Shown here piece by piece: positions 8,331 through 37,847 of a stretch of 40,925 bases of DNA (position 1 is its first letter; every line of letters begins with the position of its first letter). A program made the position numbers and the translations under genes. The stretch spans positions 1 through 40,925 of the IMG/VR virus record IMGVR_UViG_2671180437_000016. The stretch is one strand, 5' to 3'. This DNA comes from a virus (lineage: Duplodnaviria; Heunggongvirae; Uroviricota; Caudoviricetes). The notes beneath the pieces are model-generated. The model made no database searches, was not told where the DNA came from, and saw only the letters and a list, made by a program, of their open reading frames with translations.

Positions 8331-8377
8331 TAAAATATTCTAAAATCTATTGATTTCGTGTCTTATGTGGTTTTTAA

Positions 8378-8392
8378 TTACCTCAGAGGTAA
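8378..8392. promoter_or_regulatory. Operator-like palindrome TTACC-TCAGA-GGTAA overlapping ribosome-binding region
   Basis: Perfect site ending 4 nt before ATG at 8396. Confidence 0.55.
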
Positions 8393-8395
8393 ATC

Positions 8396-8740
8396 ATGAG
8401 AAAACAGATACAGGCTCTTGGTCGACTCAAAACAGGCCAGATGAACAAAACAGAATCTGCGTATTGCCAGCACCTTGAGCAGCGTAAACGTGCAGGGGAA
8501 ATCGCCTGGTATCGATTCGAGGGTATCAAGCTGCGGTTAGCTGACAACACGTTCTATACGCCCGATTTCGCTGTGATGCTCGCCACCGGAGAGATGGAAC
8601 TGCACGAAGTGAAAGGTTTCTGGACCGACGACGCCAGGGTGAAAACCAAAGTCGCCGCAGATCAGTATCCGTTCCGAATCATCGGGGTAACGGTTAAACC
8701 AAAGAAAGCAGGTGGTGGCTGGAACATCGAAGAGTTCTGA
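8396..8740 (+). CDS. DUF1064-like phage protein
   Basis: 114 aa; 'YTPDFAVMLATGEMELHEVKGFWTDDARVKTKV' resembles DUF1064 proteins common in phage replication/nin regions. Confidence 0.6.
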   Translation: MRKQIQALGRLKTGQMNKTESAYCQHLEQRKRAGEIAWYRFEGIKLRLADNTFYTPDFAVMLATGEMELHEVKGFWTDDARVKTKVAADQYPFRIIGVTVKPKKAGGGWNIEEF

Positions 8741-8801
8741 ATCGACGATCTTTTTAGTTATCAATGTAATCAATAAGTTATGTGGATAAGCGAGGGTAAA
8801 G

Positions 8802-9416
8802 ATGGAAAGTAATATCAAAGGGTTAGTTTCCGCCGGGCATGAGATGGCTTCGGAACTGAAAGCAGAATGTGGTGCCGTTGATATGCGCAGTGTGGCAAAG
8901 CTGATCAGCGATTTGGCAACGCAACTGGAAGTGCAACTGGTGCGTGCTAATGCGCTGGCCGAAGACCAACAGAAAGCGCTTGAGTCAATTAAGCAGGCTG
9001 ATGCGGCTGTTAAGTTGGCACACGAGAAGTTTTCAGCTCTGGCGGCGGAGAATGCGGGGCTTAAGGCCTTCAAAACCGCCGTTTATCAGCAGATGGGCGT
9101 TGGATGTGATGCTCCTGAATTCTCCATTACGGTAGGTTTGAGTAACTTACGTCGTTTTGCTGACACACTCCACGCCATTGAGCGTGAGTTCTTTACCAAA
9201 GAGCTACCTGATGAAGAGCACGAAGGCGAAACATTCAATGAATGTCCACTTAGCTGGGGAATGAGCGTCGAACAGTACGTTTCCGAGTTTCGCAAATGCC
9301 TGGCTGAAGTACGGGCGCAGGGCGTGGAGATGTTTGCGGAGTGTGCATACACACTTGAACATCATGATCACGCAGTTGCCTTCGCCGCTGAGCTTCGCAA
9401 AGGAGGCAACCAGTGA
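8802..9416 (+). CDS. Hypothetical phage protein
   Basis: 204-aa ORF with SD GAGGGTAAAG; no recognisable domain. Confidence 0.55.
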   Translation: MESNIKGLVSAGHEMASELKAECGAVDMRSVAKLISDLATQLEVQLVRANALAEDQQKALESIKQADAAVKLAHEKFSALAAENAGLKAFKTAVYQQMGVGCDAPEFSITVGLSNLRRFADTLHAIEREFFTKELPDEEHEGETFNECPLSWGMSVEQYVSEFRKCLAEVRAQGVEMFAECAYTLEHHDHAVAFAAELRKGGNQ

Positions 9417-10030
9417 GCGAAATTAATTACCAGGCACTGCTGGCCAAGGCAGAAAAAGCAACGTGTGGTGAGTGGTCGCTCGAATATGGAGAGAGCCGAT
9501 TTGATGGTGATGATGCGCTAATTCATCGTGAAGTTGCTGGATATATTCCTATTTGCAGAATTGAAGGAGCGCATCCAGAAAGCGGTTTCGATGAAGATTT
9601 CCAAATGGAACAGCAGGCCAATGCTGAATTCATCGCCGCAGCCAATCCCGCTACCGTCTTGGCGCTGCTGGATGAGCTGGAAAGAAACCAGCAATACATC
9701 AAACGCCGCGACCAGGAGAACGAGGATATTGCGCTAACGGTAGGGAAGCTGCGCGTTGAGCTTGAGGAGACAAAATCAAAACTCAACGAGCAACGCGAGT
9801 ATTACGAAGGTGTTATCTCGGATGGGAGTAAGCGCATAGCAGAGTTAGAAAGTGGTTCTCAGGCACAAAAGTTAGTTGAAGCAATCATTGTTGCGATAGA
9901 AAACGAACAGGAAAGGCTTTTTGATGAAGATTACCTAATGGATTCGAAAGAATGCATTGACGTAATTCGTGAAGAAGTAAAGCGATGGAATGATTCCCGT
10001 GCCGCTGGCATTCGCATCAAAGGAGAGTGA
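9413..10030 (+). CDS. Ead/Ea22-like protein
   Basis: GTG start overlapping upstream stop, AAGGAGG SD; N-terminus 'SEINYQALLAKAEKATCGEW' is the characteristic Ea22-like signature; coiled-coil C-terminus. Confidence 0.7.
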   Translation: MSEINYQALLAKAEKATCGEWSLEYGESRFDGDDALIHREVAGYIPICRIEGAHPESGFDEDFQMEQQANAEFIAAANPATVLALLDELERNQQYIKRRDQENEDIALTVGKLRVELEETKSKLNEQREYYEGVISDGSKRIAELESGSQAQKLVEAIIVAIENEQERLFDEDYLMDSKECIDVIREEVKRWNDSRAAGIRIKGE

Positions 10031-10031
10031 T

Positions 10032-10547
10032 ATGGCGTTAACACACCACGAACTCTGTCAGATTGCGTACAAGTTCCTTAAGCGCAACGGGTTCAAGGTT
10101 TGCTTTCATGACCGCTTTGTTGCTGTAACCAGTACCGGAGAACAGCCAGATGCTATGGGATTCAGAAATTCAGCATCATGCCTGATAGAGGCGAAGTGTT
10201 CTCGTGCTGACTTGTTGGCAGATAGAAAAAAGCGTTTCCGTAAAAATCCCTCACTTGGCATGGGCGACTGGCGATTCTTTATTAGTGAGCCGGAAATTAT
10301 TTCAGTTGAGGATTTACCTCCCGGCTGGGGATTACTTCACGTTGTTAACGGAAGAGTACGGAAAGTACATGGATGGCCCAGGGGTAATTGCTGTTGGGGT
10401 AATCCTGACGATAAGCCATTTACCGGGAATAAGCAGGTTGAATGCGATTACATGTTATCTGCATTAAGGCGCATGGAGTTGAGAGGGCACCTTAATGAAA
10501 TATATGACGGTGTGATTGTTAATAAGAAAGAAGGAAACGCGGCATGA
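10032..10547 (+). CDS. Putative PD-(D/E)xK-type nuclease-like protein
   Basis: Start at MALTHHELCQ (ATG 10032, SD AAAGGAGAG); 'GEQPDAMGF...LIEAKCSRADL' resembles D...E-x-K nuclease motif; inference only. Confidence 0.45.
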   Translation: MALTHHELCQIAYKFLKRNGFKVCFHDRFVAVTSTGEQPDAMGFRNSASCLIEAKCSRADLLADRKKRFRKNPSLGMGDWRFFISEPEIISVEDLPPGWGLLHVVNGRVRKVHGWPRGNCCWGNPDDKPFTGNKQVECDYMLSALRRMELRGHLNEIYDGVIVNKKEGNAA

Positions 10548-11617
10548 TCACTATTACCAAAGGGCGACTGCTGACAATCAAGCAGTGGCGCGAAACATAC
10601 GGACCGGGTAGCAACGTTGTACTGCCAGCAGAAGAAGCGGAAGAACTGGCACGGATTGCACTGGCATCATTGGAAGCAGATCCAGTTAAACGAGTTAACT
10701 CAGATCAGATGCACCGAGTCTGCTTAGAAGCTAATCGCTATTTAGATAAATATGACGCGATGGCGAAAGAGGTAAATAAGTTGCTTGGACGCATCGCCCC
10801 GCCAGCGCCAGTATTTAACGGCGAATACGGTGACGCATATCAGGGCGCACGGAAGACCTGTCCATCTGGAAACGGCGAGCGCTTGAAGCTGATGAGCACT
10901 TCCCGACTGGAGCAAATCAATGACCACATGTTGAAAGAGGCGCAGGGAGAATCACGCATGGGCGAGCCTGTAATACGTGAGCCAGCACCGGTAGTGCCTG
11001 AAGAAGCAACTCCGGAAAACGTAGAAATGCTCTCTGGCTATGTTTCAACGTACAAATTAACCGATAGCGAGCGCGATATTGCTGCCGAAATATGGAACGC
11101 CTGCCGCGCCGCCATGCTTCAGTCCGGAAACTTTCGGGAAAACAAGAATTCGTCAACCAATAATTTTCGGGAAATCGCGGAAACGTCAACCAACTATCCG
11201 GCAATTCCTAGTGAGGTGTTGTCCGCAATCCTGAAGGTTGCCAGGATTCGTGCCGATTTCGATGATTTTGACGGTGACAGGCGAGGTATCGGTGATTGTC
11301 TGGATGAGGCTGAGCAAGAGCTTATCGTTACCATTAACAAATATGCCAGTCAGTTGGCAGCAGAACCTATAGCGCCTAATGACGTTCGAGAGCAGACAGC
11401 CATTCCACAAGTTCCGGTAACTCCGGATGGTTGGATAAGCTGTAGTGAGCGAATTCCCGCTCAAGACGATTGGGTTTTAATTTATTCAAAGCACGGCGAG
11501 TATATGGCAGGACAGGTACAAGGGGAATACGTGGAGTTGAGCGACGGCACTTTATCGTGGTTAGGGAACGCCTTGTACTGGATGCTGCTACCAGAACCGC
11601 CGCAGGAGGTGAAGTGA
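10544..11617 (+). CDS. DUF551-domain-containing phage protein
   Basis: 357 aa; C-terminal '[28 protein letters not shown]' resembles DUF551. Confidence 0.6.
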
Positions 11618-11958
11618 TGGACTATTCACAGTTAAGTGATTTTGAAATTAACAGAATGGTAGGAGACATAATTTTTAAAGGCCTTTGGGCATGTAAACCG
11701 GAAACATCAGGGAATAACACCAACAAATGGTATTACGGAAATGCTGATACAACTTTTGAGCCATTAACCCCTTTACCTGACTACTGCAATGATCCGATCG
11801 CTTCATGGCCGATTATTGAGAAATACAGGATTTCTATCTTAGACCAGTTAACTGAATGGTGTGTGGATGCAAAAGACGTAAGACCAATATTTGATACCAG
11901 ACCTCTCCGCGCCGCCATGATTGTATTTCTCATGATGCAGGAAAATCAGAATGGCTAA
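11617..11958 (+). CDS. Hypothetical phage protein
   Basis: 113 aa from ATG 11617 (overlaps upstream stop TGATG); internal start of track ORF 11470..11958. Confidence 0.55.
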
Positions 11959-12289
11959 ATCAGCAGCAGAGCGCAAAGCCGCTCAGAGAGCCAGACAAGC
12001 TGCATCTGGTGTGCGTAAGATGGAGATTGTGCTTGATGCTCAGGAAATTGAAATGCTAGAGCGTAACTGTGCCACGCGTCGCCCCGGGCGTGCGCCTTAC
12101 GAATTTGGTGAGTATATAGCGTCACTGATCCGCCAGGATGATGCACGCGTGCGCGGGCGTATAAAATCGATCAGCAGAAAACGTTGCGGTAAGTGCGGCG
12201 AGAGAGTTCCAGTTAATTCATGCCCGTGCAATGGTGACTCGCAATGCTGGGTGACTAAAGGCTGGCATGAAACGAAATTAATAGTGTGA
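11951..12289 (+). CDS. Basic Cys-rich small protein, candidate late-gene regulator
   Basis: 112 aa; '[17 protein letters not shown]' zinc-ribbon-like; last gene before terminator and packaging genes; function inferred from position only. Confidence 0.5.
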
Positions 12290-12298
12290 CATGTCACG
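12285..12298. promoter_or_regulatory. 14-bp near-palindrome TGTGACATGTCACG (copy 1)
   Basis: Core GTGACATGTCAC (12286-12297) is a perfect 12-bp palindrome overlapping the stop codon of 11951..12289; recurs at 32512-32525 and, with one change, at 15361-15374. Confidence 0.5.
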
Positions 12299-12338
12299 AG
12301 TAGATTATGCATGATGAATTTGATGTGTTTTGAATACT

Positions 12339-12364
12339 GCCGCCAACTATGGCGGCTTTATTTT
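12339..12364 (+). terminator. Rho-independent terminator upstream of terminase small subunit
   Basis: Stem GCCGCC/GGCGGC, loop AACTAT, followed by TTTATTTT. Confidence 0.6.
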
Positions 12365-12407
12365 GCATGGTACTATTACCACAACGGTAACTATTACCAC
12401 GGTGGTT

Positions 12408-13004
12408 ATGATGCCTGCTGAACCTAAAACCTATAAACGCAAATCAACGCAATTTAAGCCACTAACAGCAATGCAGGAGGCTTATTGCCAGTCATACATC
12501 AAAACGCCTGAAAACCAGACTCAGGCAGCGATTAACGCAGGATTCTCCCCAAATACAGCGGCAGTTAAAGCCAGTGTAATGATGCGCGATGAACGTATTC
12601 AAAAACGGATTGCCGAGTTGATGGAGGAGCGCAACAAACGAATGCGCGTCAGTGCTGATTACGTTCTCATGCGCCTGGTGGAGATCGACCAGATGGACGT
12701 GATCGACATCCTCAACGACGATGGGAGCCTTAAGCCAATCCGCGAGTGGCCGAAAATCTGGCGCACTACGCTTAGCGGCTTTGATCTGTCATCGACCATC
12801 ATGAACATGAACGAGGATTCGATAGAGACAATCCTCAAAAAAATTAAATGGCCTGACAAGGTGAAGAACCTCGAACTGATTGGTAAGCACGTCGACGTCA
12901 ACGCATTCAAAGAACGCTTGGATGTTAATGTGAATGTGACAATTGCTGATCGCATAGCAGCAGCCAGGAAGCGACTCAAAGAACGTCAGGATGGCAATCA
13001 GTGA
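12408..13004 (+). CDS. Terminase small subunit
   Basis: Start at MMPAEPK (ATG 12408, GGTGG SD); the track ORF start at 12330 would read through the terminator hairpin; directly precedes and overlaps large terminase. Confidence 0.6.
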   Translation: MMPAEPKTYKRKSTQFKPLTAMQEAYCQSYIKTPENQTQAAINAGFSPNTAAVKASVMMRDERIQKRIAELMEERNKRMRVSADYVLMRLVEIDQMDVIDILNDDGSLKPIREWPKIWRTTLSGFDLSSTIMNMNEDSIETILKKIKWPDKVKNLELIGKHVDVNAFKERLDVNVNVTIADRIAAARKRLKERQDGNQ

Positions 13005-14476
13005 CAGATACAGCGTTATCTCCTGAAGAGCAGTTAATCGAGGATATTGCAGGGTTCACTCACGATCCGCTTGGCTATGCCCTCTATGCGTTCCCTTGGG
13101 GGGAAGAGGGGACTGAACTGGCACATGCTACCGGCCCACGTCAGTGGCAGGCTGATGCGTTCCGAGAGATACGTGATCACCTGCAGAATCCAGAGACGCG
13201 CTATCAGCCGCTTATGCTGGCACGCGCTTCTGGTCACGGTATTGGTAAATCCGCATTCATCTCAATGCTGATCAACTGGGGCATGTCCACTTGCGAGGAT
13301 TGTAAGGTCGTGGTGACCGCCAACACCGACAACCAGCTACGAACGAAGACCTGGCCGGAAATTATCAAGTGGTCGAACCTTGCTATCACGAAAGACTGGT
13401 TTACCTGTACCGCTACCGCGATGTACAGCAATGACCCTGGGCACGACAAGCGGTGGCGGGCTGACGCAATACCCTGGTCTGAGCACAACACTGAGGCGTT
13501 CGCCGGACTACACAACGAGCGCAAACGCATCATCGTGGTGTTTGATGAAGCGTCGAACATTGCGGATCTGGTGTGGGAAGTTGCCGAGGGGGCGCTTACG
13601 GACGAAGACACTGAGATTATCTGGGTGGCGTTCGGAAACCCGACGCGTAATACCGGACGTTTCCGCGAATGTTTCCGCAAATATAAACACCGCTGGAAAA
13701 CTGCGCAGATTGACAGCCGGACGGTGGAAGGCACTAACAAACAGCAGTTGCAGAAATGGGTTGATGACTACGGGGAAGACAGCGACTTCGTTAAAATCCG
13801 TGTGCGCGGCATATTCCCTGATGCATCTGAATTGCAGTTTATCCCTACCGGCCTTACTGACGAGGCAATGAAACGGGTGGTAACTGCTGCGCAGGTGGCA
13901 CATGCTCCGGTGATAATCGGCGTTGACCCGGCATACTCCGGCGTTGATGACGCTGTGATATACCTGCGGCAGGGGCTGCACAGTAAGGTGCTGTGGACTG
14001 GCAACAAGACCACTGACGATCTGATTATGGCGAAGCGCATCGCTGACTTTGAAGACCAGTATCAGGCTGACGCGGTATTCATCGACTTCGGTTACGGAAC
14101 CGGTTTGAAGTCAATCGGTGATGGCTGGGGACGTACATGGCAACTTGTTCCGTTCGGTGGCGCGTCTACTGACCCGCAGATGCTCAACAAGCGTGGGGAG
14201 ATGTTCAACTCATGTAAGACATGGCTGAGGCTGGGCGGTATGCTGGATGACCAGGAAACAGCGGACGACCTGTCGACGGCAGAGTACAAAGTTCGCGTGG
14301 ACGGTAAAATCGTTATCGAACCGAAGGAAGATATCAAAGAACGACTTGGGCGTTCGCCGGGGAAAGGCGATGCGCTATTGCTGACGTTTGCTTTCCCTGT
14401 GTCGAAGCGCCTGCGAATTCCCGGTCAGCAGAACCAGCAAGGCAAGGCCATCACAGATTACGACCCGTTTGCGTGA
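13001..14476 (+). CDS. Terminase large subunit
   Basis: 491 aa; Walker-A-like 'ASGHGIGKS', nuclease-domain 'VDPAYSGVDDAVIY'; GTG start overlapping terS stop. Confidence 0.85.
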   Translation: MTDTALSPEEQLIEDIAGFTHDPLGYALYAFPWGEEGTELAHATGPRQWQADAFREIRDHLQNPETRYQPLMLARASGHGIGKSAFISMLINWGMSTCEDCKVVVTANTDNQLRTKTWPEIIKWSNLAITKDWFTCTATAMYSNDPGHDKRWRADAIPWSEHNTEAFAGLHNERKRIIVVFDEASNIADLVWEVAEGALTDEDTEIIWVAFGNPTRNTGRFRECFRKYKHRWKTAQIDSRTVEGTNKQQLQKWVDDYGEDSDFVKIRVRGIFPDASELQFIPTGLTDEAMKRVVTAAQVAHAPVIIGVDPAYSGVDDAVIYLRQGLHSKVLWTGNKTTDDLIMAKRIADFEDQYQADAVFIDFGYGTGLKSIGDGWGRTWQLVPFGGASTDPQMLNKRGEMFNSCKTWLRLGGMLDDQETADDLSTAEYKVRVDGKIVIEPKEDIKERLGRSPGKGDALLLTFAFPVSKRLRIPGQQNQQGKAITDYDPFA

Positions 14477-14477
14477 T

Positions 14478-15218
14478 TTATTGCTTATTTTTCACGGCTT
14501 CAGCAATCATTCTCTCAGCCTGTGATGTATATGTTTTTCGCAAGGGTTCATGGCCCATATGCAATACGATACTTTCCTTTTCTTTTTCCTTTAATTCTTG
14601 TATGAGATTATTTATTTTGGCCTCCCTATCTTCAAGCATTCTGGCGGACTTTTCTGCCTCAATCTTTAACGCTGCAGCCACTGATTGCATGTTTTCCAGC
14701 TTCTTATTCAATTCCAAAACCTTATCGGAGAGCCTATCTCTTTCCGACGTTAGCTCACCCATCCTGGCCTGTGACTCCGTAATTCTTTCCTTCATAGCCT
14801 GTATGTCTTTTTCGGCGCCAGTCTTAACTTTGTCGTATGTCACATCGTGCTTTGCCTTCAGGCGCTGCAGGCGTGTGGCGCGATGAATGCGCTTGGCCTT
14901 CCGGTGGTTCTCTATCGAATCGTAATTATCAAGAGGTTTGGCTTGCCACTTTGAAATCACGTTGTTGATCCAGGGCATGCCGCCGCACAGGATTATTGCT
15001 GAAACACATGGGAATGCTAATACCGTTTTCCAACTGCTATTGCTGGAAATGTAGGTGATCTTGTCGATGATGCTGGAGTCGCTGAGGAGTAAGTATAAAA
15101 TCGACTTCCAGTTAAAGGCGCACCATGACAGTGCGAACGCTCCAAACACTGGATTTCTGACCCTTTGCGAAGCGGTATTAACGGTTGAAGATAGGTATTC
15201 TTTAAGTGATTCAAGCAT
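14478..15218 (-). CDS. Moron: predicted membrane-anchored coiled-coil protein of unknown function
   Basis: 246 aa on opposite strand inside structural region; visibly AT-rich; two hydrophobic segments ('VFGAFALSWCAFNW', 'VLAFPCVSAIILCGG') then long charged coiled-coil-like tail; own operator site upstream. Confidence 0.6.
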   Translation of the reverse strand: MLESLKEYLSSTVNTASQRVRNPVFGAFALSWCAFNWKSILYLLLSDSSIIDKITYISSNSSWKTVLAFPCVSAIILCGGMPWINNVISKWQAKPLDNYDSIENHRKAKRIHRATRLQRLKAKHDVTYDKVKTGAEKDIQAMKERITESQARMGELTSERDRLSDKVLELNKKLENMQSVAAALKIEAEKSARMLEDREAKINNLIQELKEKEKESIVLHMGHEPLRKTYTSQAERMIAEAVKNKQ

Positions 15219-15248
15219 GTCCAGGCCCTTTTAGGTTTTTTTCTGATT

Positions 15249-15263
15249 CTACCTTTAAGGTAA
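15249..15263. promoter_or_regulatory. Operator-like palindrome CTACC-TTTAA-GGTAA upstream of moron
   Basis: One-mismatch family member 31-45 nt upstream of moron start codon. Confidence 0.5.
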
Positions 15264-15360
15264 TCTTCGGTCATTATGAAAAACGTATCCCTATGAGGGG
15301 ATAATGTCGTTGATATCCTCTGATGAGGATAAAACAAAGCCAGCTTATCGGCTGGCTGTT

Positions 15361-15374
15361 TGTGACGTGTCACG
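15361..15374. promoter_or_regulatory. 14-bp near-palindrome TGTGACGTGTCACG (copy 2, one substitution)
   Basis: Differs from 12285-12298 by a single central A to G change. Confidence 0.45.
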
Positions 15375-15416
15375 ACATTAAAATCCATCGAATTCGTATT
15401 TCATGATTCACACCTT

Positions 15417-15440
15417 AAAAAAATGCCCGGTGAACCGGGC
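15417..15440 (-). terminator. Rho-independent terminator downstream of tRNA
   Basis: Stem GCCCGG/CCGGGC, loop TGAA, A-run on plus strand (U-run on minus); a second hairpin AGCCAGC/GCTGGCT at 15331-15364 has A- and T-rich flanks. Confidence 0.55.
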
Positions 15441-15603
15441 GAACTGGAAGCAATGAGTTATGCCTTCCGTGGCTGTACGGGTTTACAGCATGAAGTCATC
15501 GCAATGGCGTCCTGCTGTAAAAAGGGCGGTGATAGTCCTTCAATGGAAACCATCACCGCCAAGCACCTGGAACTTCTGGCATCACGGTCCTTAGGCGTGA
15601 TTC

Positions 15604-15680
15604 TGGCGTGGCATGCAGGATTCGAACCTGCGACCAACCGCTTAGAAGGCGGTTGCTCTGTCCAACTGAGCTAATGCCAC
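15604..15680 (-). tRNA. tRNA-Arg (anticodon UCU)
   Basis: 77-nt cloverleaf read on minus strand: acceptor GTGGCAT/ATGCCAC, D-arm GCTC...GAGC, anticodon stem ACCGC/GCGGT with loop CTTCTAA (anticodon TCT), T-arm GCAGG-TTCGAAT-CCTGC, discriminator G + CCA. Confidence 0.85.
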
Positions 15681-16002: not shown

Positions 16003-16017
16003 TTACCTGAAAGGTAA
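16003..16017. promoter_or_regulatory. Operator-like palindrome TTACC-TGAAA-GGTAA upstream of portal operon
   Basis: Perfect site; followed at 16060 by CATATGTGGTTAAA motif. Confidence 0.55.
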
Positions 16018-16107
16018 TAATTTGTGCGTTAAATGTCAACTATCTACGATAAATAAATCATATGTGGTTAAATTGGTGATAATTTAATTGCGTACGGAGT
16101 CATTGAT

Positions 16108-16314
16108 ATGTGCATGGGTAGCTCACCATCAGTGCCTGCAACACCAGAAGTTCAGGCAGCACCACAGGAGCAGGATGCCGCCGTTGTTGATGCCCGCGAC
16201 GAAGAAACACGTCGCCGTCGCGCTGCTGCTGGTCGTAGTTCTACGCTGCTTACCGGTTCTCAGGGCGACACATCAACCGCTAATACCAGCGGTAAAACGC
16301 TGCTTGGTCAGTAA
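16108..16314 (+). CDS. Small hypothetical protein (68 aa) upstream of portal
   Basis: Translation initiation region ACGGAGTCATTGATATG is near-identical to that of the portal gene; Q/A/T-rich product. Confidence 0.4.
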   Translation: MCMGSSPSVPATPEVQAAPQEQDAAVVDARDEETRRRRAAAGRSSTLLTGSQGDTSTANTSGKTLLGQ

Positions 16315-16328
16315 CCGGAGTCATTGAA

Positions 16329-18999: not shown

Positions 19000-19013
19000 G
19001 AGAGGAAATGACA

Positions 19014-24749: not shown

Positions 24750-25294
24750 TGTGCGATCCGGTTATTGCTGGTGGCGCAATGCTCGCCATGAGTGGCATTC
24801 AGGCATACACCCAGTACCAACAGGGAAAGTATGCCTCGAAGGTTGCAGAAGCGAACGCAGATATAGCCACTGCTCAGGCAAATGATGCAATAAACAGAGG
24901 TAACGCTGAAGCTGAGCAACGGCGCAGAGAGACCCGACAGCGGCTTGGTACACAGGCGGCGACAATGGGGGCGACCGGCGCTGATTTATCTACCGGTAAC
25001 GCGCTGGATATATTTGGCGACACTGCCCAGTTTGGCGCCCTTGATTCGCTGACGACGGTGAATAACGCGCAACGCGAGGCTTACGGTTATCAGGTTCAGG
25101 CTGCCAACTATAAAGCAGAAGCCAGTTCAGCCCGTAAACAGGGGAATGTGGGAGCAGCAACAACATTGCTCACCGCGCCTCTGAGGGCATACGGTGCGTA
25201 CCAGATGTTTGGTGGGACGTGGAGTCCGTTTACTCAAAGCACTCCTGCGCCAATCGGGGCAGCAGCAGGAACCAGATTACCCGGAGGATTATAA
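24749..25294 (+). CDS. Internal virion protein, putative
   Basis: 181 aa, Ala/Gly/Gln-rich; position equivalent to T7 gp14. Confidence 0.4.
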   Translation: MCDPVIAGGAMLAMSGIQAYTQYQQGKYASKVAEANADIATAQANDAINRGNAEAEQRRRETRQRLGTQAATMGATGADLSTGNALDIFGDTAQFGALDSLTTVNNAQREAYGYQVQAANYKAEASSARKQGNVGAATTLLTAPLRAYGAYQMFGGTWSPFTQSTPAPIGAAAGTRLPGGL

Positions 25295-29606: not shown

Positions 29607-29611
29607 ATTAA

Positions 29612-32086: not shown

Positions 32087-32095
32087 GGAACAACA

Positions 32096-32509
32096 ATGAA
32101 GGAATTATTGCTGTTATCGGTATTTTTGATATCCGCTTGCTCGACATCCTATGATGTTTATGACGGTGTTGATAAGGCATATTGCGACAAAGTTAAAATG
32201 GATTTTTCTCTTGCCAAGACGGCGAAGGATAGTTGTATTGATCACTACGTCAAGACTTATACCAAGCCAGCATCATCGGCATCTGATATTGCTGAAGGTG
32301 CTGTGTTTGAGTGTAACAAGGTGATATCCATCGCAGCGAGTTCTTCATACGATGCTGCTGTATGTGCAATGGCTGAAAGAAACGGCATGTCAGTGCAAAA
32401 AGTTAATAGCATGATAAACAGTAATGACGAAGCCAAAATAAGAACTGATATCAGCTCGGTGAAAAAAGATGCCATGAACAGAGTTGTAAAATATCAGTCA
32501 TCTTTATAA
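32096..32509 (+). CDS. Predicted lipoprotein (cargo; candidate superinfection-exclusion factor)
   Basis: 137 aa; signal peptide with lipobox 'LISAC'; SD AAGGAA; immediately after ejection-protein genes; followed by palindrome and terminator. Confidence 0.6.
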   Translation: MKELLLLSVFLISACSTSYDVYDGVDKAYCDKVKMDFSLAKTAKDSCIDHYVKTYTKPASSASDIAEGAVFECNKVISIAASSSYDAAVCAMAERNGMSVQKVNSMINSNDEAKIRTDISSVKKDAMNRVVKYQSSL

Positions 32510-32511
32510 GT

Positions 32512-32525
32512 CGTGACATGTCACA
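32512..32525. promoter_or_regulatory. 14-bp near-palindrome CGTGACATGTCACA (copy 3, inverted relative to copy 1)
   Basis: Exact reverse complement of 12285-12298; core 32513-32524. Confidence 0.5.
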
Positions 32526-32549
32526 GGCCGCAAAAGCGGCCTTGTTTTT
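32526..32549 (+). terminator. Rho-independent terminator after lipoprotein gene
   Basis: Stem GGCCGC/GCGGCC, loop AAAA, followed by TTGTTTTT. Confidence 0.6.
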
Positions 32550-32709
32550 AACGAATGCCACCGCCGCCAGGGCGGGAATCTGCAGAACGCCCACCGCAGC
32601 GGGAGCCGTCAGCGGCAGTATCGCTGTCGTGCTGGCAACGACCGGCAAAGGCCTGAGTTGAAGCTACCAGAGACAACAAAACGAACAGTGCAGCAAATGC
32701 TTTTTTCAT
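32548..32709 (-). CDS. Small secreted Cys-containing peptide (53 aa precursor), hypothetical
   Basis: Internal ATG (32709) of 77-aa track ORF; 'MKKAFAALFVLLSLVASTQAFA' signal peptide then about 31-aa Gly/Arg/Asp-rich region with two Cys; weak SD. Confidence 0.3.
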   Translation of the reverse strand: MKKAFAALFVLLSLVASTQAFAGRCQHDSDTAADGSRCGGRSADSRPGGGGIR

Positions 32710-32781
32710 TGTGAAATTTCCATCTATAAGCCACCTCAATGTGGCGTCAATGAGTGTAGCACTGACTTTTGTTTCGTCCAC

Positions 32782-32802
32782 AAAAAAGCCCGCGTTGCGG
32801 GC
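32782..32802 (-). terminator. Rho-independent terminator after orphan gene
   Basis: Stem GCCCGC/GCGGGC with plus-strand A-run (minus-strand U-run) immediately 3' of stop at 32808. Confidence 0.55.
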
Positions 32803-32807
32803 TTCTA

Positions 32808-33440
32808 TTAATGCAGTTTATCTTTGCTTATAACCAGTAGTCTGTGGGTATGCACATCTTTATCACTGCCCCAACAGAAATCAGCCCACTGGCTATAGAA
32901 ATCATCCCATGATGTCATGAAGCTAAGAGGTCTATCTTCTTCAGAGCCATCTGAAACGTATACATTATATCCTGGGGTGTTTATAGCCCAAGAAATCATT
33001 CTTTCCCAGAATCTTCTCCCATCGATTGTTTGTTGCTCATCAGATACAACGATCGCATATTGCTCTAGGAAGAACTGAAAAAAAATCTGAGGCAAACCAT
33101 GAACAGCACGGTCATGAATAACATTAGGCGTACGCCATACCATGATCTGCGTACATGTTCTTTTGGCTTCGACGATATCTTCCCGAAAGATTAACTTAAC
33201 CGCATACACCGTTTCTGGAGTATCGCTGGTAGTAATCATTCTGTAATGATCGCCATTACAAGATTTTACAAGGCGATAACCATAAGGTGTTGTGAATCCC
33301 GGAAGAACGAAATCAACCACACCTTTCGCTAAGTAGCTTTCGGTGTGACTAGTGTTCTTCTCAGACATGTTCAGTTTTCTGTCGAAATCTGCTTCTGGGA
33401 TAATGTATGGCATCGCTTTTCTTGTTGTATTTGTTTTCAT
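32808..33440 (-). CDS. Orphan cargo protein of unknown function (210 aa)
   Basis: Strong SD GGGAGGA; AT-rich gene with own operator (33500-33514) and own terminator; no motif recognised. Confidence 0.6.
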   Translation of the reverse strand: MKTNTTRKAMPYIIPEADFDRKLNMSEKNTSHTESYLAKGVVDFVLPGFTTPYGYRLVKSCNGDHYRMITTSDTPETVYAVKLIFREDIVEAKRTCTQIMVWRTPNVIHDRAVHGLPQIFFQFFLEQYAIVVSDEQQTIDGRRFWERMISWAINTPGYNVYVSDGSEEDRPLSFMTSWDDFYSQWADFCWGSDKDVHTHRLLVISKDKLH

Positions 33441-33499
33441 TTCGTCCTCCCATGTTTGGCTACAGGACGCGTTTTGAAGGGAAGATTAAAAACGCTTTC

Positions 33500-33514
33500 T
33501 TACCCGTAAGGTAA
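33500..33514. promoter_or_regulatory. Operator-like palindrome TTACC-CGTAA-GGTAA
   Basis: Identical 15-mer to 5273-5287; about 60 nt upstream of orphan gene start. Confidence 0.55.
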
Positions 33515-33580
33515 TATTACGCGAATCTACATCACATCGCCAATGATTATTTTAAAGGCACATCCCTGTGCCGCCGCCCG

Positions 33581-34267
33581 TCAGAAGAACCCTGCTTTGT
33601 CGTTGATATACTCCGCGTGGGTCTGGATATCACGCAGGCATTTGCTCACACCGACGATGTAGCAGAACATGGTGGTCAGCTCCGCCGCCGCGCCCGATAC
33701 GTCGTGCCCGTCTTCCTGTAACTGGTTCAGCAGATTCATCAGCAGTGAGTTCTCCGTCAGGCCGAGAACACCAGACGGCGAGTGAATCAGACTGCGGTAG
33801 CCGGGCTTTAGTGGGGCGCTGTAGGTTTTGTTCTCTATCTTCATTGCCTGCATCACTGCTGATGCTGTGGCGTTGGCTACCTGGTCGGCAACCATCTTTA
33901 TGCGTTCTTCTTGCGGGAGCGAGTTTTTAATGTAACTTCCGGTGCGGCGGATCTGAGGAAGAACCTCACCTGTAACCCATTTACGAAAGCGGTATGGGAT
34001 AGTGCCTGGTGTCACCGCATCGCGGCAGCGGAGGATCAGTGTGTAGAGGCCTGACTCGTTGATAATATTGGTTTCGCCTTGACGGCCTAAGTTAAATTTA
34101 GCCCTTTCATCATCATCAAGAGATTTTATTGACATAGTGGGGTTTGTCAGTTGAAGAGCTTTAATAACGTCTTTGGCAACAAACCAAGGATTTCCATCAA
34201 TAACAATGGCTCGAATGGTTGCTTCTGATTCAAAATGAAAAACAGATGGGGTTACGTTAGCAGTCAT
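33581..34267 (-). CDS. Antirepressor (BRO-N domain N-terminus, Ant-like C-terminus)
   Basis: Start at MTANVTPSVF (ATG 34267, SD AAAGGTGA); 'VFHFESEATIRAIVIDGNPWFVAKDVIKALQ' is a BRO-N signature; C-terminus homologous to 35413..35670 product. Confidence 0.7.
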   Translation of the reverse strand: MTANVTPSVFHFESEATIRAIVIDGNPWFVAKDVIKALQLTNPTMSIKSLDDDERAKFNLGRQGETNIINESGLYTLILRCRDAVTPGTIPYRFRKWVTGEVLPQIRRTGSYIKNSLPQEERIKMVADQVANATASAVMQAMKIENKTYSAPLKPGYRSLIHSPSGVLGLTENSLLMNLLNQLQEDGHDVSGAAAELTTMFCYIVGVSKCLRDIQTHAEYINDKAGFF

Positions 34268-34533
34268 AGTGATCACCTTTGTAGTTAGGTTAATCACCAC
34301 TACCGACGCCAATCGGTTGGTGGTGAACTGTGCAGGGTTGGCGTAACCGGCTACAAAGGACCCGGCGCACCTTTCGGTGCCCCCACACAGCCCACCATAG
34401 AATAGGTGCGCTTTACACATAAAAAAACCGCTTATGCGGCATATGTGCCCCTGTAGTAATCCGGGACGCCAATCCCGGCACTGGATTTTGCCAGTACCCG
34501 ATTACTATGGCACAAGAGGAGTGCAATGTAAAT

Positions 34534-34548
34534 TTACCGCAAAGGTAA
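34534..34548. promoter_or_regulatory. Operator-like palindrome TTACC-GCAAA-GGTAA
   Basis: Perfect site in 394-bp divergent spacer; followed by CAACC-N6-GGTTG inverted repeat (34575-34590). Confidence 0.55.
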
Positions 34549-34626
34549 TGATAAACGCGAAGAAATATTAAAATCAACCGTATTTGGTTGATTGCGTTTA
34601 ACGCTTGATCACCTGAAAGCAAGATA

Positions 34627-34641
34627 TTACCTTTAAGGTAA
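34627..34641. promoter_or_regulatory. Operator-like palindrome TTACC-TTTAA-GGTAA
   Basis: Perfect site 20 nt upstream of ATG 34662. Confidence 0.55.
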
Positions 34642-34661
34642 TGTTATTGTGAGGAAAAGCA

Positions 34662-35390
34662 ATGGAAGTTTTCTGGATAGTTGTTGGTGTGGTTGCGGTG
34701 ATTATTTACGTTATCAACCAGAACAAGACTAAGATCTCTGATCGTACGGTCGTTAATCATAACAAAACGATAAAGACCGAAGATGGGGAGATAACGATTA
34801 ATCGTACACAGGTTATAGAACACACCTCTACTCAGTTTCAAAAAACTGGAGGTAATGCGCCTAATATTTCCGCACCTCCTGCTTATGATAGTGCGGTAAT
34901 CCAGACATATTATAAACAGCAGGAGTTAGCAAAAGAGAGGCAACTGATTCAGCCAAAGCCGTTTACAGCTGAGCTTCCACCTGGAGTGTCAACGCGTCCG
35001 GCATATCATGGAAGATTCCCTGGTGATGACATATCGTCTCAGTCATCTAAAAAAGCACCTCAGGCAGTATCAGAGCCAGCAAGAATACCTTCTGTATCGC
35101 CGCCAAAAGAAGAATCAGCTAACAGAGTTTCAAGTGGTAGCAAGCAGTGCTTGCGATGCAGAATAAACCTACCATATGAAAAATTCAGGAAATCGTCAAA
35201 AAATCCAGATGGATTGACTAAGTGGTGTGCAAGGTGTCTCGATGGCCCAAAGAATACACGCCATATGAAGTGGTGCCCAATTTGTAATGTCCGCAGAAAA
35301 CGAACAAGCTTTTACCCTAATAATCAAAATGCGGATGGCTTAATGGCATGGTGCAAAACGTGCTGGGACGAGCACAAAGCGAAACGATAG
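34662..35390 (+). CDS. Membrane-anchored protein with four C-terminal CxxC motifs (zinc-ribbon-like), unknown function
   Basis: 242 aa; N-terminal TM helix 'VFWIVVGVVAVIIYVI'; C-terminal 'CLRC','WCARC','WCPIC','WCKTC' with internal repeat 'DGL(T/M)(K/A)WC'; SD GAGGAA. Confidence 0.6.
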   Translation: MEVFWIVVGVVAVIIYVINQNKTKISDRTVVNHNKTIKTEDGEITINRTQVIEHTSTQFQKTGGNAPNISAPPAYDSAVIQTYYKQQELAKERQLIQPKPFTAELPPGVSTRPAYHGRFPGDDISSQSSKKAPQAVSEPARIPSVSPPKEESANRVSSGSKQCLRCRINLPYEKFRKSSKNPDGLTKWCARCLDGPKNTRHMKWCPICNVRRKRTSFYPNNQNADGLMAWCKTCWDEHKAKR

Positions 35391-35414
35391 GCCGCTCTTG
35401 CGGCCTTTAAATTT
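35390..35414. terminator. Bidirectional terminator between convergent genes
   Basis: Stem GGCCGC/GCGGCC, loop TCTT, followed by TTTAAATTT. Confidence 0.5.
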
Positions 35415-35670
35415 ACCGGGTTTGTTTTCGTAATTGTTCGGCACAATAGTCGAGATGTGTTTGCAGATCCTGCATAGACATCTGTGAGCTGGTGACATAG
35501 TTAATCAGTGCAGTCAGTTCGGCAAGTGGGCCATCGACATTAAATCCATCCTTATCGAGATCCCGGAGTAATTTCATCAAGTGCGATCCCTCCACCAGTG
35601 ACCTGACGCCTCCCGGCGTGTGAATCCTTTCGGTAAATCCGTCTTCCAGTGGATAGTGATACTGCTGCAT
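35413..35670 (-). CDS. Small antirepressor-like protein under a LexA box (candidate SOS-induced antirepressor)
   Basis: 85 aa from ATG 35670 (SD GGAGAAG; track ORF uses TTG at 35688); 'RIHTPGGVRSLVEGSHLMKLLRDLDKDGFNVDGPLAELTALINYV...DLQTH' aligns with C-terminus of 33581..34267 product; LexA box 20 nt upstream. Confidence 0.6.
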   Translation of the reverse strand: MQQYHYPLEDGFTERIHTPGGVRSLVEGSHLMKLLRDLDKDGFNVDGPLAELTALINYVTSSQMSMQDLQTHLDYCAEQLRKQTR

Positions 35671-35689
35671 CTTATCTTCTCCATGCAAT

Positions 35690-35709
35690 AACTGTATATT
35701 TATACAGTA
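35690..35709. promoter_or_regulatory. LexA (SOS) box AACTGTATATTTATACAGTA
   Basis: CTGT-N8-ACAG with AT-rich spacer, 18/20 match to E. coli consensus TACTGTATATATATACAGTA; only such site found in the window. Confidence 0.75.
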
Positions 35710-35744
35710 TCAAATAATTTGTTTGCTATCCAGCACGTTTTGCA

Positions 35745-35759
35745 AATTACCCGAAAGGT
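35745..35759. promoter_or_regulatory. Operator-like palindrome TTACC-CGAAA-GGTAA upstream of tail fibre gene
   Basis: Perfect site; followed at 35793 by CATATGTGGTTTTT motif. Confidence 0.55.
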
Positions 35760-35865
35760 AATATCTATTCGTATTCACAGTCTTTCTATCCATATGTGGT
35801 TTTTCAGGTAATAAAATAACCAGATATGCGGCGCAACGGGTGCTGCGACTATCTGGAGATTTAAC

Positions 35866-37626
35866 ATGACGGTCTCAACCGAAGTTGACCACAACGAATA
35901 CACCGGTAACGGTGTTACAACGACATTCCCTTATACCTTCAGGATTTTCCAGAAATCTGATTTAGTAGTGCAGGTTGTTGACCTGAACGAGAACATCACA
36001 GAGCTGATTCTTGATACTGATTACATAGTCACTGGTGCGGGAGGGTATAACGGCGGCAATGTAATTCTGTCGAAGGCGTTGGTTAACGGTTATCAGATTT
36101 CTATATCAAGAGAGCTACCGGTTACGCAGGATACCGATCTGCGCAACCAGGGTAAGTTCTTCGCTGAGGTGCATGAGGACGCGTTTGATAAGCTAACGAT
36201 GCTGATCCAGCAGGTTCGCAGTTGGTTTGCCTTGGCGCTGCGCAAGCCATCAACCATCGCTAACTGGTACGACGCGCTGGGGAATTACATTCGCAACCTG
36301 CGCGACCCACGAGACCCGCAGGATGCTGCCACTAAAAATTATGTAGACACGATTAGTAACAACAACTATCTACACACGTTAAGGGTTCCAGAATCATTTA
36401 CGCGGCAACTCCCTCCTGCTGCAGAACGTGCAAATATGATCCATGCATATGATTATGCAGGTGAGTCCATTATGGTCTTGCCTGAGAGCGGTAGTGCAGC
36501 AGATGTTCTGTTATTGCTGGCGCAACCTGACGGGCTTAAGAGGATTGGCACAAAAGTTAATTACGGTATACCGGTTGGATCTACTTTAACCGATGGCGTC
36601 ACTTTTTCTTTTGATAAGGATAAAGGTTGGCTGAGAATTGGTGGTGCCGATCTCCTACCACTTGACGATGAAAAGAACTTCTGGAGAGGCTTGCCTACAC
36701 CGAGAAATTCATGGTGTAACCCGGCTCTTATCGGTGATTACTCAGTATCTTTTAACAGAAACGGTGCGTCATTCGCGGTATACACCACAACTTTCGGGCA
36801 TGACTGCGTTACGTATGGCGTGGCATCTATTGCCGGTGGTGCTGGTTCTGCTACTGGCGACCCAGATCAAATTACCTCACCAAATGCTGAAGGGTACTGC
36901 TCTTTTGCATTTGGGAAAAATGTCATTGCTCTTGGCGCAAAATCTGCCGCATTCTGTGAAGAAACGGAAGCGCTTTCAAGGGCGGCTTTTACAACAGGTT
37001 ATTTTACGCAAGCCAGACCGGGATACACTACAGACCCCGGCGGGGTTGCAAGTGATGGCATTGGTGCGGCAGCCATTGGATATCGAACTCGCGCGGCAGG
37101 AGATGGCTCTTTTGCTGTAGGTAAGAATATTCAGGCTTATGGTGGTTCGATTGCGATAGGGAGCGGCACTAATGACGATAAGCCAGCAATCAATCCACAT
37201 AAAGACTCAGTGATGCTTTTTGCAGAATCGCTTATTCCAGGTATTGCCGTCGTCCCTGGTGGTGGTTCGCTGACGCGTGTAGGGGTGCACACAAAATATC
37301 CTAAAGAAATTTTGGAAGTAGTTTTAGAGGATGGGGGTCGCGCAGCTATCAGAATACCAGGGGTAGGAACTGGAAGGATCTTGCTACAAGGGACAGATCA
37401 CAACGGCAATGCACTTTCTATTGCGTCGCTTGAATGGATAAGCGGAAACGAAGGTAGTGCTGTTGGTTCGTTGAAAATAAACATGAACAACGACGCACCA
37501 TGCATTGAATTTCTGGAAGATGGCAAGGTGGTTTTGAAGAACGTAAAAACGCTTGAGGAGATAAACGGCGCCACCGCGGGCACCATCTATAAGGATGCTT
37601 CAAATTTCCTTAAAATTGTTGTTTAA
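35866..37626 (+). CDS. Tail fibre / tailspike protein
   Basis: 586 aa; N-terminal 'EYTGNGVTTTFPYTF' is typical of podovirus tail-fibre particle-binding domains; Gly-rich C-terminal region. Confidence 0.75.
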   Translation: MTVSTEVDHNEYTGNGVTTTFPYTFRIFQKSDLVVQVVDLNENITELILDTDYIVTGAGGYNGGNVILSKALVNGYQISISRELPVTQDTDLRNQGKFFAEVHEDAFDKLTMLIQQVRSWFALALRKPSTIANWYDALGNYIRNLRDPRDPQDAATKNYVDTISNNNYLHTLRVPESFTRQLPPAAERANMIHAYDYAGESIMVLPESGSAADVLLLLAQPDGLKRIGTKVNYGIPVGSTLTDGVTFSFDKDKGWLRIGGADLLPLDDEKNFWRGLPTPRNSWCNPALIGDYSVSFNRNGASFAVYTTTFGHDCVTYGVASIAGGAGSATGDPDQITSPNAEGYCSFAFGKNVIALGAKSAAFCEETEALSRAAFTTGYFTQARPGYTTDPGGVASDGIGAAAIGYRTRAAGDGSFAVGKNIQAYGGSIAIGSGTNDDKPAINPHKDSVMLFAESLIPGIAVVPGGGSLTRVGVHTKYPKEILEVVLEDGGRAAIRIPGVGTGRILLQGTDHNGNALSIASLEWISGNEGSAVGSLKINMNNDAPCIEFLEDGKVVLKNVKTLEEINGATAGTIYKDASNFLKIVV

Positions 37627-37727
37627 GAGAAGTCATCGCCAAGGAATGCAGCGAGAAAACGCAAATATTGTATGTTGGCTATCATGCCCTAACTCTAATT
37701 TTAAATGACACAAGGATATTTATGATA

Positions 37728-37742
37728 TCACCTTTAAGGTAA
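37728..37742. promoter_or_regulatory. Operator-like palindrome TCACC-TTTAA-GGTAA upstream of lysis cassette
   Basis: One-mismatch family member; followed at 37776 by ACATATGGTTTATT motif. Confidence 0.5.
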
Positions 37743-37847
37743 TTTCGTTAAGAATTATCAGATCAAGTTTAATCCACATATGGTTTATTGTGTATGATGA
37801 ACTAACCAACTAAGGGGATTCTTTATGCACATTAAACGGTGTTTTTT

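Follow-up and report, generated by a model that had tools for sequence, protein, structure and literature searches.

At T4 middle promoters with a MotA box and at PhoB-dependent promoters with a pho box, a regulator site near -30 replaces the -35 box about 10-13 bp 5′ of a sigma-70 -10 hexamer, and region 4 of sigma is remodelled or contacted. The late promoters of phage P1 reportedly have a normal -10 box but lack a -35 box, and a short inverted repeat is conserved in the interval between these two positions, as Lehnherr and Arber and Lobocka 2004 are said to describe, and the late activator is reported in the P1 literature to be encoded in a repressor-controlled early unit. The P1 late genes are cited as dependent on Lpa (PMC8198154). 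Here, an Escherichia coli prophage of the epsilon15/phiV10 type (genus Uetakevirus; IMG/VR record IMGVR_UViG_2671180437_000016, the whole stretch of 40,925 nucleotides or 40.9 kb being referred to as the window) was analysed with regard to a 14-bp dyad that takes the place of the missing -35 box in three late promoters, namely those of the portal/structural operon, the tail fibre and the lysis cassette. Functionally, this late-promoter unit resembles the P1 Lpa, T4 MotA-box middle and PhoB-type promoters, in what seems to be the pairing of a -10 hexamer with a regulator site in lieu of a -35 box.

As in P1, the phage is temperate and has repressor operators scattered over its genome. The P1 repeat, however, is shorter and centred nearer -22, whereas the window dyad spans 14 bp, is centred at about -27 to -30 and has an unrelated sequence, and the P1 C1 operator is asymmetric, unlike the palindromic operator of the window. 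No Lpa homologue surfaced in general family searches of the window proteins, which included no search aimed at Lpa. The MotA box is a single box and pho boxes are direct repeats, in contrast to a dyad, and no AsiA-like, MotA-like or response-regulator gene was identified among the window proteins scanned. Class II activator sites (CRP/FNR, -41.5) and lambda CII sites are likewise dimer or tetramer sites overlapping the -35 region of a weak promoter. One dyad copy does resemble the class II position: that of P_R2, the second of the early rightward promoters, has its centre at -40.5 and borders on a genuine -35 box. The three late copies, however, lie approximately 11-14 bp closer to the start, and the lambda CII sites are direct repeats that serve lysogeny promoters, not late genes. 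The kind of architecture is already known, and for the dyad itself no published or annotated description was found: the records of epsilon15 and phiV10 carry no feature for it, and a full-text literature search for its sequence, which lacked the original epsilon15 genome paper and both SPC32H repressor papers, returned unrelated primers only. Nor was any description of how late genes are switched on in Uetakeviruses found in the searchable literature. Uetakeviruses (epsilon15, phiV10, SPC32H, TL-2011b) occur commonly as prophages in E. coli and Salmonella and serve as reporter-phage chassis, and a late-promoter unit of about 30 bp would offer both a direct assay in the search for the activator and a compact phage-inducible promoter for engineering.

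Anatomy and conservation of the late-promoter dyad

The original prediction described a one-sided 9-nt motif at a constant distance downstream of four TTACC-N5-GGTAA operators, ahead of the DUF1064 gene, the portal operon, the tail fibre and the lysis cassette, and read operator and motif together as a composite promoter. All four strings were recovered within 0-2 nt of the positions given for them (Table 1), each downstream of such a palindrome (at 8316-8330 for the DUF1064 gene; the lysis palindrome has one mismatch, TCACC) and each followed by the gene named. Exact copies of TATGTGGTT numbered three against 0.29 expected, a count reached by 0 of 100 shuffles; all are on the plus strand, 29-41 nt past a TTACC-N5-GGTAA palindrome, and all fall within the roughly 1% of strand positions located 15-65 nt past one. 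The sharing of a 9-mer by three of the 16 palindrome-flank windows had a P value of 0.006 under a Markov null with flank composition. The fourth site, that of the lysis cassette, is a variant in which CCACATATGG is the reverse complement of the CCATATGTGG found at the other sites, and it reads as the same element with its centre inverted. The 9-nt unit itself gave way to a longer one, with TATGTGGTT being read here as the promoter-proximal arm of a 14-bp imperfect two-fold dyad, A-(A/T)-(C/T)-C-A-YATR-T-G-G-T-T. Allowing at most one mismatch, AACCA-N4-TGGTT was found at eight sites in the window against 1.39 expected (0 of 100 shuffles reached eight), five of them intergenic (6390, 16056, 34576, 35788 and 37772), and weaker copies with the right arm only were seen at 8359-8372 and 5231-5244. 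The copies at 6390-6403 (both arms perfect), 34576-34589 and 5231-5244 had been overlooked previously.

The three late promoters have one layout in common, consisting of the dyad, a gap of 7-10 nt, a conserved sigma-70 -10 hexamer and a short leader. This anatomy was read directly from the DNA; the transcription starts are predicted ones, which would place the dyad centre at approximately -26.5 to -29.5 and leave short leaders with Shine-Dalgarno sequences. At the portal promoter, for example, a start near 16090 would give a leader of about 17 nt with GGAG ahead of the ATG at 16108; the corresponding fibre and lysis starts would fall near 35824 and 37805. The A at position 2 and the T at position 6 of the -10 hexamer are kept in all orthologues of the three promoters. 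No -35 box was found at any of them: a consensus promoter scan reported no promoter there, and the hexamers at the -35 position (AAATCA, TCCATA and TAATCC, by reading) match TTGACA at three of six positions at most. A plus-strand pattern of dyad arm and -10 hexamer matched only the three late promoters and one coding site. A conserved -10 hexamer, an absent -35 box and a shared element in its place, the features looked for in activator-dependent late promoters, were found at all three. The proposal of a "core element or activator site" accordingly fits the position of the motif at the portal, fibre and lysis promoters, where it is a genuine promoter-associated element just 5′ of a -10 hexamer. 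Promoter calling has one external check: a promoter scanned independently has its -10 hexamer 7 nt 5′ of position 34497, where the 5′ end of the isrK match to Rfam falls.

Conservation was assessed in phiV10, epsilon15, SPN1S, 65FD, Tyrion and BUCT711, within a set of seven complete phages of Escherichia, Salmonella, Enterobacter and Klebsiella, and in population profiles built from unique IMG/VR variants (79 lysis, 42 portal and 93 fibre). The unit of dyad and -10 hexamer is kept across the phages of these four genera, with TGGTT as the nearly invariant arm, and the portal copy is also present in Rahnella and Pantoea prophages, while the DNA between palindrome and dyad has diverged freely in relatives. 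In all three population profiles, information content climbs exactly at the left arm of the dyad, and C4, the mirror of G11, carries about 1.6-1.8 bits; this mirrored conservation supports a true dyad. The portal block is identical or nearly so in the seven phages and about 12 prophage lineages, and its TGGTT is invariant among 79 close relatives. At the fibre promoter, the -10 hexamer of which has GGTAA, equal to a palindrome half-site, ahead of it, only the operator arms, CATAT, GGTT and GGTAATAGAAT survive across phages, with C4 also kept; the 29 nt from palindrome to dyad are unrelated among E. coli-, Salmonella-, Enterobacter- and Klebsiella-type sequences, yet constant in length. The lysis promoter is conserved in the seven complete phages from CCA-YAT-R-TGGTT through to the ATG.

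Relation of the dyad to operators and early promoters

With at most one mismatch, TTACC-N5-GGTAA occurs at 16 sites in the window against 0.56 expected, and the epsilon15 record NC_004775 annotates matching palindromes as protein_bind "repressor" (predicted sites). These palindromes are the presumed operators of an SPC32H-type prophage repressor, the presumed binder being the repressor encoded in the window, and form an element separate from the dyad. Operators of SPC32H Rep and epsilon15 occur in the same genomes as the dyad, often within 20-52 bp of it, and both are palindromic with an ACC...GGT core. The operator, however, has a 5-5-5 geometry with outer AA, whereas the dyad is 5-4-5 with outer TT and a conserved AT-rich centre and occurs without operators. 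When the late-promoter dyads were placed in the operator frame, they matched at most about five of ten arm positions, so that membership of the operator class fails on both geometry and arm sequence.

The constant spacing put forward in the original prediction was not borne out across sites, where the gaps from palindrome end to string are 31, 41, 29 and 33 nt (DUF1064, portal, fibre and lysis), similar only, and the centre-to-centre distances from palindrome to dyad are 40.5, 42.5, 43.5 and 52.5 bp. Within each promoter, though, the spacing is tightly kept. Measured from palindrome end to (x)GGTT, 110 of 112 variants have a fibre gap of 35 nt, with single cases of 34 and 36 nt; the portal gap, 47 nt in all E. 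coli-like sequences, is shortened to 36 nt in one IMG/VR contig and in three prophages of the Rahnella type, the sole change of length at the portal promoter being 11 bp, or about one helical turn. Taken over all sites, the operator-dyad centres lie 19.5, 40.5-43.5 or 51.5-52.5 bp apart, near two, four and five helical turns, and this helical phasing gave a Rayleigh p of about 4e-4 with 11 distances and 8e-3 with seven.

An obligatory composite of operator and motif is contradicted by the lysis promoter. Among the 92 unique sequences found upstream of it, 22 are devoid of a full palindrome over 150 nt, and in 13 of the 22 a GGTAA half-site 4-9 nt upstream is missing as well. In all 22, the dyad and the -10 block are unaltered, and as the lysis dyad is kept without the palindrome, dyad and operator are separable, which is a direct observation. 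Placed 6-7 nt 5′ of the dyad, a GGTAA half-site recurs in 22 of the 92 lysis variants (IMG/VR loci L140, L150, L154, L157, L158 and others), in most lineages at P_R2 and also at P_L, the early promoter that points left.

The DUF1064 site proved to be a different case from the other three, since a complete promoter, TTGATT/TTTAAT, stands there between two palindromes (8316-8330 and 8378-8392, 62 bp centre to centre), and the motif falls within its 17-bp spacer. In lineages with a DUF1064 promoter layout of this kind, TGG(T/A)T is retained in ten of 11, and prophages of Buttiauxella, Rahnella, Pantoea and Pseudescherichia have a DUF1064-type promoter with two adjacent palindromes and without the dyad. 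The copy in the P_L spacer has the same frame in flipped orientation, and this promoter is also bracketed by palindromes 62 bp apart (5211-5225 and 5273-5287); Tyrion carries CCATATATGG at the same position, and Scandinavium has a near-consensus palindrome, TTACCAAAATGGTTA, where the window has the dyad-like sequence. Because they are absent or replaced in some lineages, these early-promoter copies are less constrained, and would be repressive if occupied. The P_R2 copy lies 7 bp past a GGTAA half-site, and the promoter stands behind the terminator that ends the cro-like gene (6336-6355) and ahead of the replication genes, so that early-right transcription seems to be split into two units (terminator, then separate P_R2; 6336-6430). 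The arrangement GGTAA-N7-CCWWWTWYGG-TTGATC-17-CAAAAT is kept in most of the approximately 12 lineages examined, with Pantoea and Samsonia deviating. The dyad at 34576-34589 is covered by a minus-strand hairpin listed by the terminator scan (34572-34593), which lists no late-promoter dyad. An assignment of this copy to -41.5 of a leftward TTGATT-18-TATCAT promoter was dropped, as the isrK 5′ end at 34497 fits a TTTACA-17-CATAGT promoter further left. The TGGTT arm is promoter-proximal at six of seven sites.

A single composite unit is also at odds with the portal and lysis palindromes overlapping leftward promoter-like sequences of their own. The portal palindrome holds a putative -10 hexamer, TACCTT (16016-16011, minus strand), set 17 nt from a perfect -35 hexamer, TTGACA (16039-16034). 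Every lineage has kept this leftward sequence, and the 11-bp deletion seen in Rahnella-type prophages does not reach into it. It probably drives the tRNA-Arg(TCT) gene on the minus strand (15680-15604), 3′ of which lies a strong minus-strand hairpin with a T run (15525-15560); together, promoter-like sequence, tRNA gene and hairpin look like a repressor-controlled leftward tRNA unit. At the lysis palindrome, the conserved TCACC mismatch is GGTGA on the other strand and supplies the TG of a leftward TG-extended -10-like sequence, TATCAT (37727-37722, minus strand). A further palindrome, 34534-34548, abuts the -35 hexamer of the leftward TTTACA-17-CATAGT promoter, the -10 hexamer of which ends 7 nt 5′ of the isrK match start at 34497. 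Not every operator, then, belongs to the promoter of the gene on its right; several overlap leftward promoter-like sequences. The lysis -10-like hexamer is TATTAT, TAAAAT or TAATAT in relatives, and it faces O-antigen conversion genes in phiV10 and epsilon15 and the end of the fibre gene in the window.

Proposed mechanism, candidate binders and competing explanations

Under the reading favoured here, to which we give about an even chance, a phage-encoded activator of late genes binds the dyad and takes over the role of -35 recognition; that a protein binds there, which one it is and whether it activates or represses are what we infer from the sequence. A dimeric phage regulator, produced from the early operons, would bind the dyad and let host RNA polymerase initiate without a -35 box. 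In a lysogen, repression of the early operons, and hence of the gene for this regulator, would suffice to keep the late genes silent, although operator-bound repressor may also act on the late promoter, given the fixed operator-dyad distance of approximately whole helical turns. Through the dyads that border the -35 hexamer of P_R2 or lie in the P_L and DUF1064 spacers, this protein could also tune early promoters or switch them off. In a close relative, ZX5, the mRNAs of holin and endolysin were reported to fall by over 99.9% when the repressor was overexpressed (PMC9782041), which is consistent with control of late genes by the repressor, whether direct or indirect, and does not tell the two apart.

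Several observations weigh against an activator site. A dyad centre near -28 is unusual for a classical class II activator, which would be expected near -41.5, the gap between dyad and -10 hexamer varies from 7 to 10 nt, and the copies in the P_L and DUF1064 spacers cannot be activating. The strict operator-dyad spacing, together with the frequent GGTAA half-site 6-7 nt 5′ of the dyad, suggests some coupling to the repressor for which the simple cascade has no need, and the recurring composite GGTAA-N7-CCA-N4-TGG (window 6380-6403 and 5221-5244) is not accounted for by an activator model. Furthermore, homologues of the most obvious candidate, a 112-aa regulator whose gene closes the early-right operon, are found in N15 and P2-like Yersinia phages, yet intergenic dyads are absent from N15 and from the P2-like Yersinia phage genome compared; N15 carries a Q-like gene annotated as a late transcription activator.

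Three window proteins were considered as candidate binders of the dyad. The PerC-family protein of the early-left operon is one candidate; PerC proteins are described as small DNA-binding regulators or activators on mobile elements (PMC4764244). The 112-aa regulator is another, for which no positive link was found: it gave no Pfam, NCBIfam or PDB sequence match, and its AlphaFold model (mean pLDDT 62) was too poor to use. The Cro-like protein is the third candidate, with a helix-turn-helix weakly similar to that of the N-terminal domain of the repressor. The repressor, the Cro-like protein, gp42 and the 112-aa regulator were present in every operator-bearing lineage whose locus spans them (two partial loci were not judged), and as all four genes co-occur everywhere, co-occurrence gives no discrimination.

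Repressor control could also be exerted through the dyad itself. In the main alternative, a rather unlikely one, the dyad would be an auxiliary low-affinity repressor site, and a tetrameric repressor seated on a strong operator and on the dyad, either adjacent (19.5 bp) or looped (about 41 or 52 bp), would clamp promoters whose operator lies too far upstream to block polymerase. The SPC32H repressor is described, in two secondary sources, as a tetramer on DNA with a loop-type tetramerisation domain (PMC9638917, PMC9986798), and the window repressor is a close homologue of SPC32H Rep. The phasing of the operator-dyad distances near two, four and five helical turns, the 11-bp difference of the only portal length variant, the presence of GGTAA half-sites at 6-7 nt from numerous dyads and the ACC...GGT cores common to operator and dyad point the same way, as do the second terminase operator of E. 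coli-type phages, where GGTTA stands in for GGTAA, and the near-perfect Scandinavium operator exactly at the dyad-like position of P_L. The dyad, however, has a consensus of its own, with 5-4-5 and not 5-5-5 geometry, a CCA/TGG mirror, outer TT against the AA of the operator and an AT-rich centre, and the 22 of 92 lysis promoters that keep it with no operator within 150 nt leave it without a cooperative partner. The orientation of the TGGTT arm toward the -10 hexamer at all three late promoters would be needless for a symmetric clamp, which would also leave the switching-on of three -35-less promoters unexplained. If the operator-dyad phasing does reflect physical contact, it would extend the unusual tetrameric mechanism of the SPC32H repressor. 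A coupled two-code system, which we consider very unlikely, would have a second specificity read AACCA-N4-TGGTT on the helix face of operator-bound repressor, two, four or five turns off, the reader being either the second helix-turn-helix domain of the repressor (about residues 105-150) or a partner touching it; one assembly would keep late promoters off in the lysogen, and the same site would serve activation after the antirepressor has removed the repressor. Residues of about 105-150 have so far been regarded only as an oligomerisation and antirepressor-binding domain.

That no phage protein binds the dyad is distinctly unlikely; it would then be an unusual core-promoter feature that host RNA polymerase reads directly, or else a place where a host protein binds or bends DNA. 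The dyad always lies inside the polymerase footprint, its TGGTT arm is promoter-proximal at six of seven sites, A/T-rich DNA follows on its 3′ side, and IHF sites are predicted beside two operators in the epsilon15 record; these predicted sites, however, miss the dyad and are not conserved in E. coli-type sequences, the match to the -35 consensus is three of six at best and wrongly spaced (by reading), and two-fold symmetry with a conserved distal arm is unexpected for an element read by polymerase only. It is scarcely credible that the dyad reflects the shared ancestry of duplicated promoter cassettes or AT-rich chance, without a function of its own. The portal and fibre promoters do align over about 30 nt (CATATGTGGTT-N5-GGT-R-ATAA), and k-mer enrichment near operators is dominated by A/T-rich words and so uninformative, but the dyad does not change from genus to genus although the DNA around it has diverged to saturation, it is fixed in about 80-110 population variants per promoter, and the chance statistics for the 9-mer and the dyad contradict such an origin. 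Distant large-terminase relatives (in Pseudomonas, Burkholderia, Massilia, Sphingomonas and others) have the portal gene directly after the terminase, with no separate promoter and no TTACC operators, and therefore cannot separate these hypotheses.

Known element classes were also compared with the dyad and set aside. Read as a -35 box, TGGTTA would lie only 7-10 bp from the -10 hexamer, and for a TGn-extended -10 element the hexamers after TGG (TTAAAT, TTTTTC and TTTATT) lack the A at position 2. The consensus sites of IHF (WATCAANNNNTTR), CRP (TGTGA-N6-TCACA), DnaA (TTATNCACA) and sigma-54 (TGGCAC-N5-TTGC), compared by eye, each fail at several invariant positions, and an Rfam gathering scan returned only C4, isrK and a tRNA, none of them at dyads.

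Gene map and minor observations

The window is 97-98% identical over large parts to phiv142-3, PAS61, TL-2011b and phiV10, and 72 of 5,426 complete E. coli genomes have matches spanning at least 80% of a 15-kb query taken from it. The gene map (Table 1) was made by transferring the phiV10 and epsilon15 annotations onto the list of open reading frames of the window. The ATG at 12411 is the likelier start of the small terminase gene, the more upstream call in phiV10 and the window (12330) being probably too long.

Table 1. Positions of genes, operators, dyads and predicted promoter elements in the window, with lysis dyads of related phages
Feature	Sequence	Position	Strand	Remarks
Integrase		1-1251		Annotation transfer
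Early-left operon			-	Annotation transfer
PerC-family small activator gene		2089-2388	-	Early-left operon; PF06069, E = 6e-7
AlpA-like gene		2498-2746		
Predicted leftward early promoter P_L	-35 TTGACA, 17-nt spacer, -10 AATTAT	5225-5253 (-35 5253-5248; -10 5230-5225)	-	
Dyad-like sequence, P_L	ATGCTTATTTGGTT	5231-5244	+	In P_L spacer
Prophage repressor		5345-5929	-	Homologue of Salmonella phage SPC32H Rep, PDB 5d50, E = 1.7e-41
Cro-like helix-turn-helix protein		6084-6314	+	76 aa
Dyad, P_R2	AACCAAATCTGGTT	6390-6403	+	Both arms perfect; abuts -35 of P_R2
Predicted second early rightward promoter P_R2	-35 TTGATC, 17-nt spacer, -10 CAAAAT	6402-6430 (-35 6402-6407; -10 6425-6430)	+	
gp42		6465-6665		
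Replication genes		After Cro-like gene		Annotation transfer
Predicted DUF1064 promoter	-35 TTGATT, 17-nt spacer, -10 TTTAAT	8350-8378 (-35 8350-8355; -10 8373-8378)	+	
Dyad-like sequence, DUF1064	TGTCTTATGTGGTT	8359-8372	+	Right arm only; in promoter spacer
Quoted string, DUF1064	CTTATGTGGTTTTT	8362		Originally placed at 8361
DUF1064 gene		8396-8740		ATG at 8396
112-aa "transcriptional regulator" (PHROG label)		11951-12289	+	Last early-right operon gene; cysteine-rich C-terminus
Terminase genes		From 12330 and 13001		As annotated
Repressor palindrome, portal side	TTACCTGAAAGGTAA	16003-16017		
Portal dyad	AATCATATGTGGTT	16056-16069	+	
Quoted string, portal	CATATGTGGTTAAA	16059		Originally placed at 16060
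Portal -10, predicted	GATAAT	16078-16083	+	8 nt past dyad; AATAAT or AATTAT in relatives
Small first gene of portal operon		16108-16314		Then portal gene from 16329 and structural operon
Dyad between palindromes 34534-34548 and 34627-34641	AACCGTATTTGGTT	34576-34589		Upstream of leftward isrK/C4-antirepressor promoter
Repressor palindrome, fibre	TTACCCGAAAGGTAA	35747-35761		35 nt ahead of TGGTT of fibre dyad
Fibre dyad	ATCCATATGTGGTT	35788-35801	+	
Quoted string, fibre	CATATGTGGTTTTT	35791		Originally placed at 35793
Fibre -10, predicted	TAAAAT	35812-35817	+	10 nt past dyad; TAGAAT in most relatives, TACAAT in 65FD
Tail fibre		35866-37626		
Repressor palindrome, lysis side	TCACCTTTAAGGTAA	37728-37742		TCACC mismatch
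Lysis dyad, window	ATCCACATATGGTT	37772-37785	+	Conservation begins exactly at left arm
Lysis dyad, phiV10 and Tyrion	AACCATATATGGTT			Perfect palindrome
Lysis dyad, SPN1S and 65FD	ATCCATATATGGTT			
Lysis dyad, epsilon15	TTCCATATGTGGTT			
Quoted string, lysis	ACATATGGTTTATT	37776		Originally placed at 37776
Lysis -10, predicted	TATGAT	37793-37798	+	7 nt past dyad; TATAAT in phiV10
Lysis cassette		From 37848		Preceded by short open reading frame starting at 37825

Between the terminator and the terminase ATG, two palindromes lie 18 bp apart (12376-12408), as they do in orthologues; the second almost always has one mismatch (TTACT...GGTAA or TTACC...GGTTA) and overlaps the likely ribosome-binding site. 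Repressors of the epsilon15 and phiV10 types are about 42% identical overall, yet have the same TTACC-N5-GGTAA palindrome, and their N-terminal approximately 70 residues are far better conserved than the remainder. The Rfam matches to isrK (34421-34497, minus strand) and C4 antisense RNA (34316-34402, minus strand) lie directly upstream of and overlap the Bro-N antirepressor gene (33581-34420, minus strand), and this isrK-C4-Bro-N arrangement resembles a P1 immI-type module. A LexA box, CTGTATATTTATACAG, was noted at 35692-35707, just upstream of a small minus-strand gene (35413-35688) homologous to phiV10 p24 and epsilon15 gp19; Kim and Ryu reportedly found in 2013 that the small antirepressor of SPC32H is LexA-controlled. 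The terminator scan also revealed two tandem TGGGATCATTCAACATCCCGTTTTTGGG-like hairpin copies at 7031-7074 (minus strand) inside the DnaT-like replication gene. The lysis leader is strongly conserved, and its mini-open reading frame, in relatives ATG CAC AGT AAA CGG TGG TAA (MHSKRW), ends a few nucleotides before the first lysis ATG and may serve translational coupling or leader-peptide control; the counterpart in phiV10 lies at about 24789-24812, and that of the window (37825-37848) is altered to MHIKRCFLCQFS.

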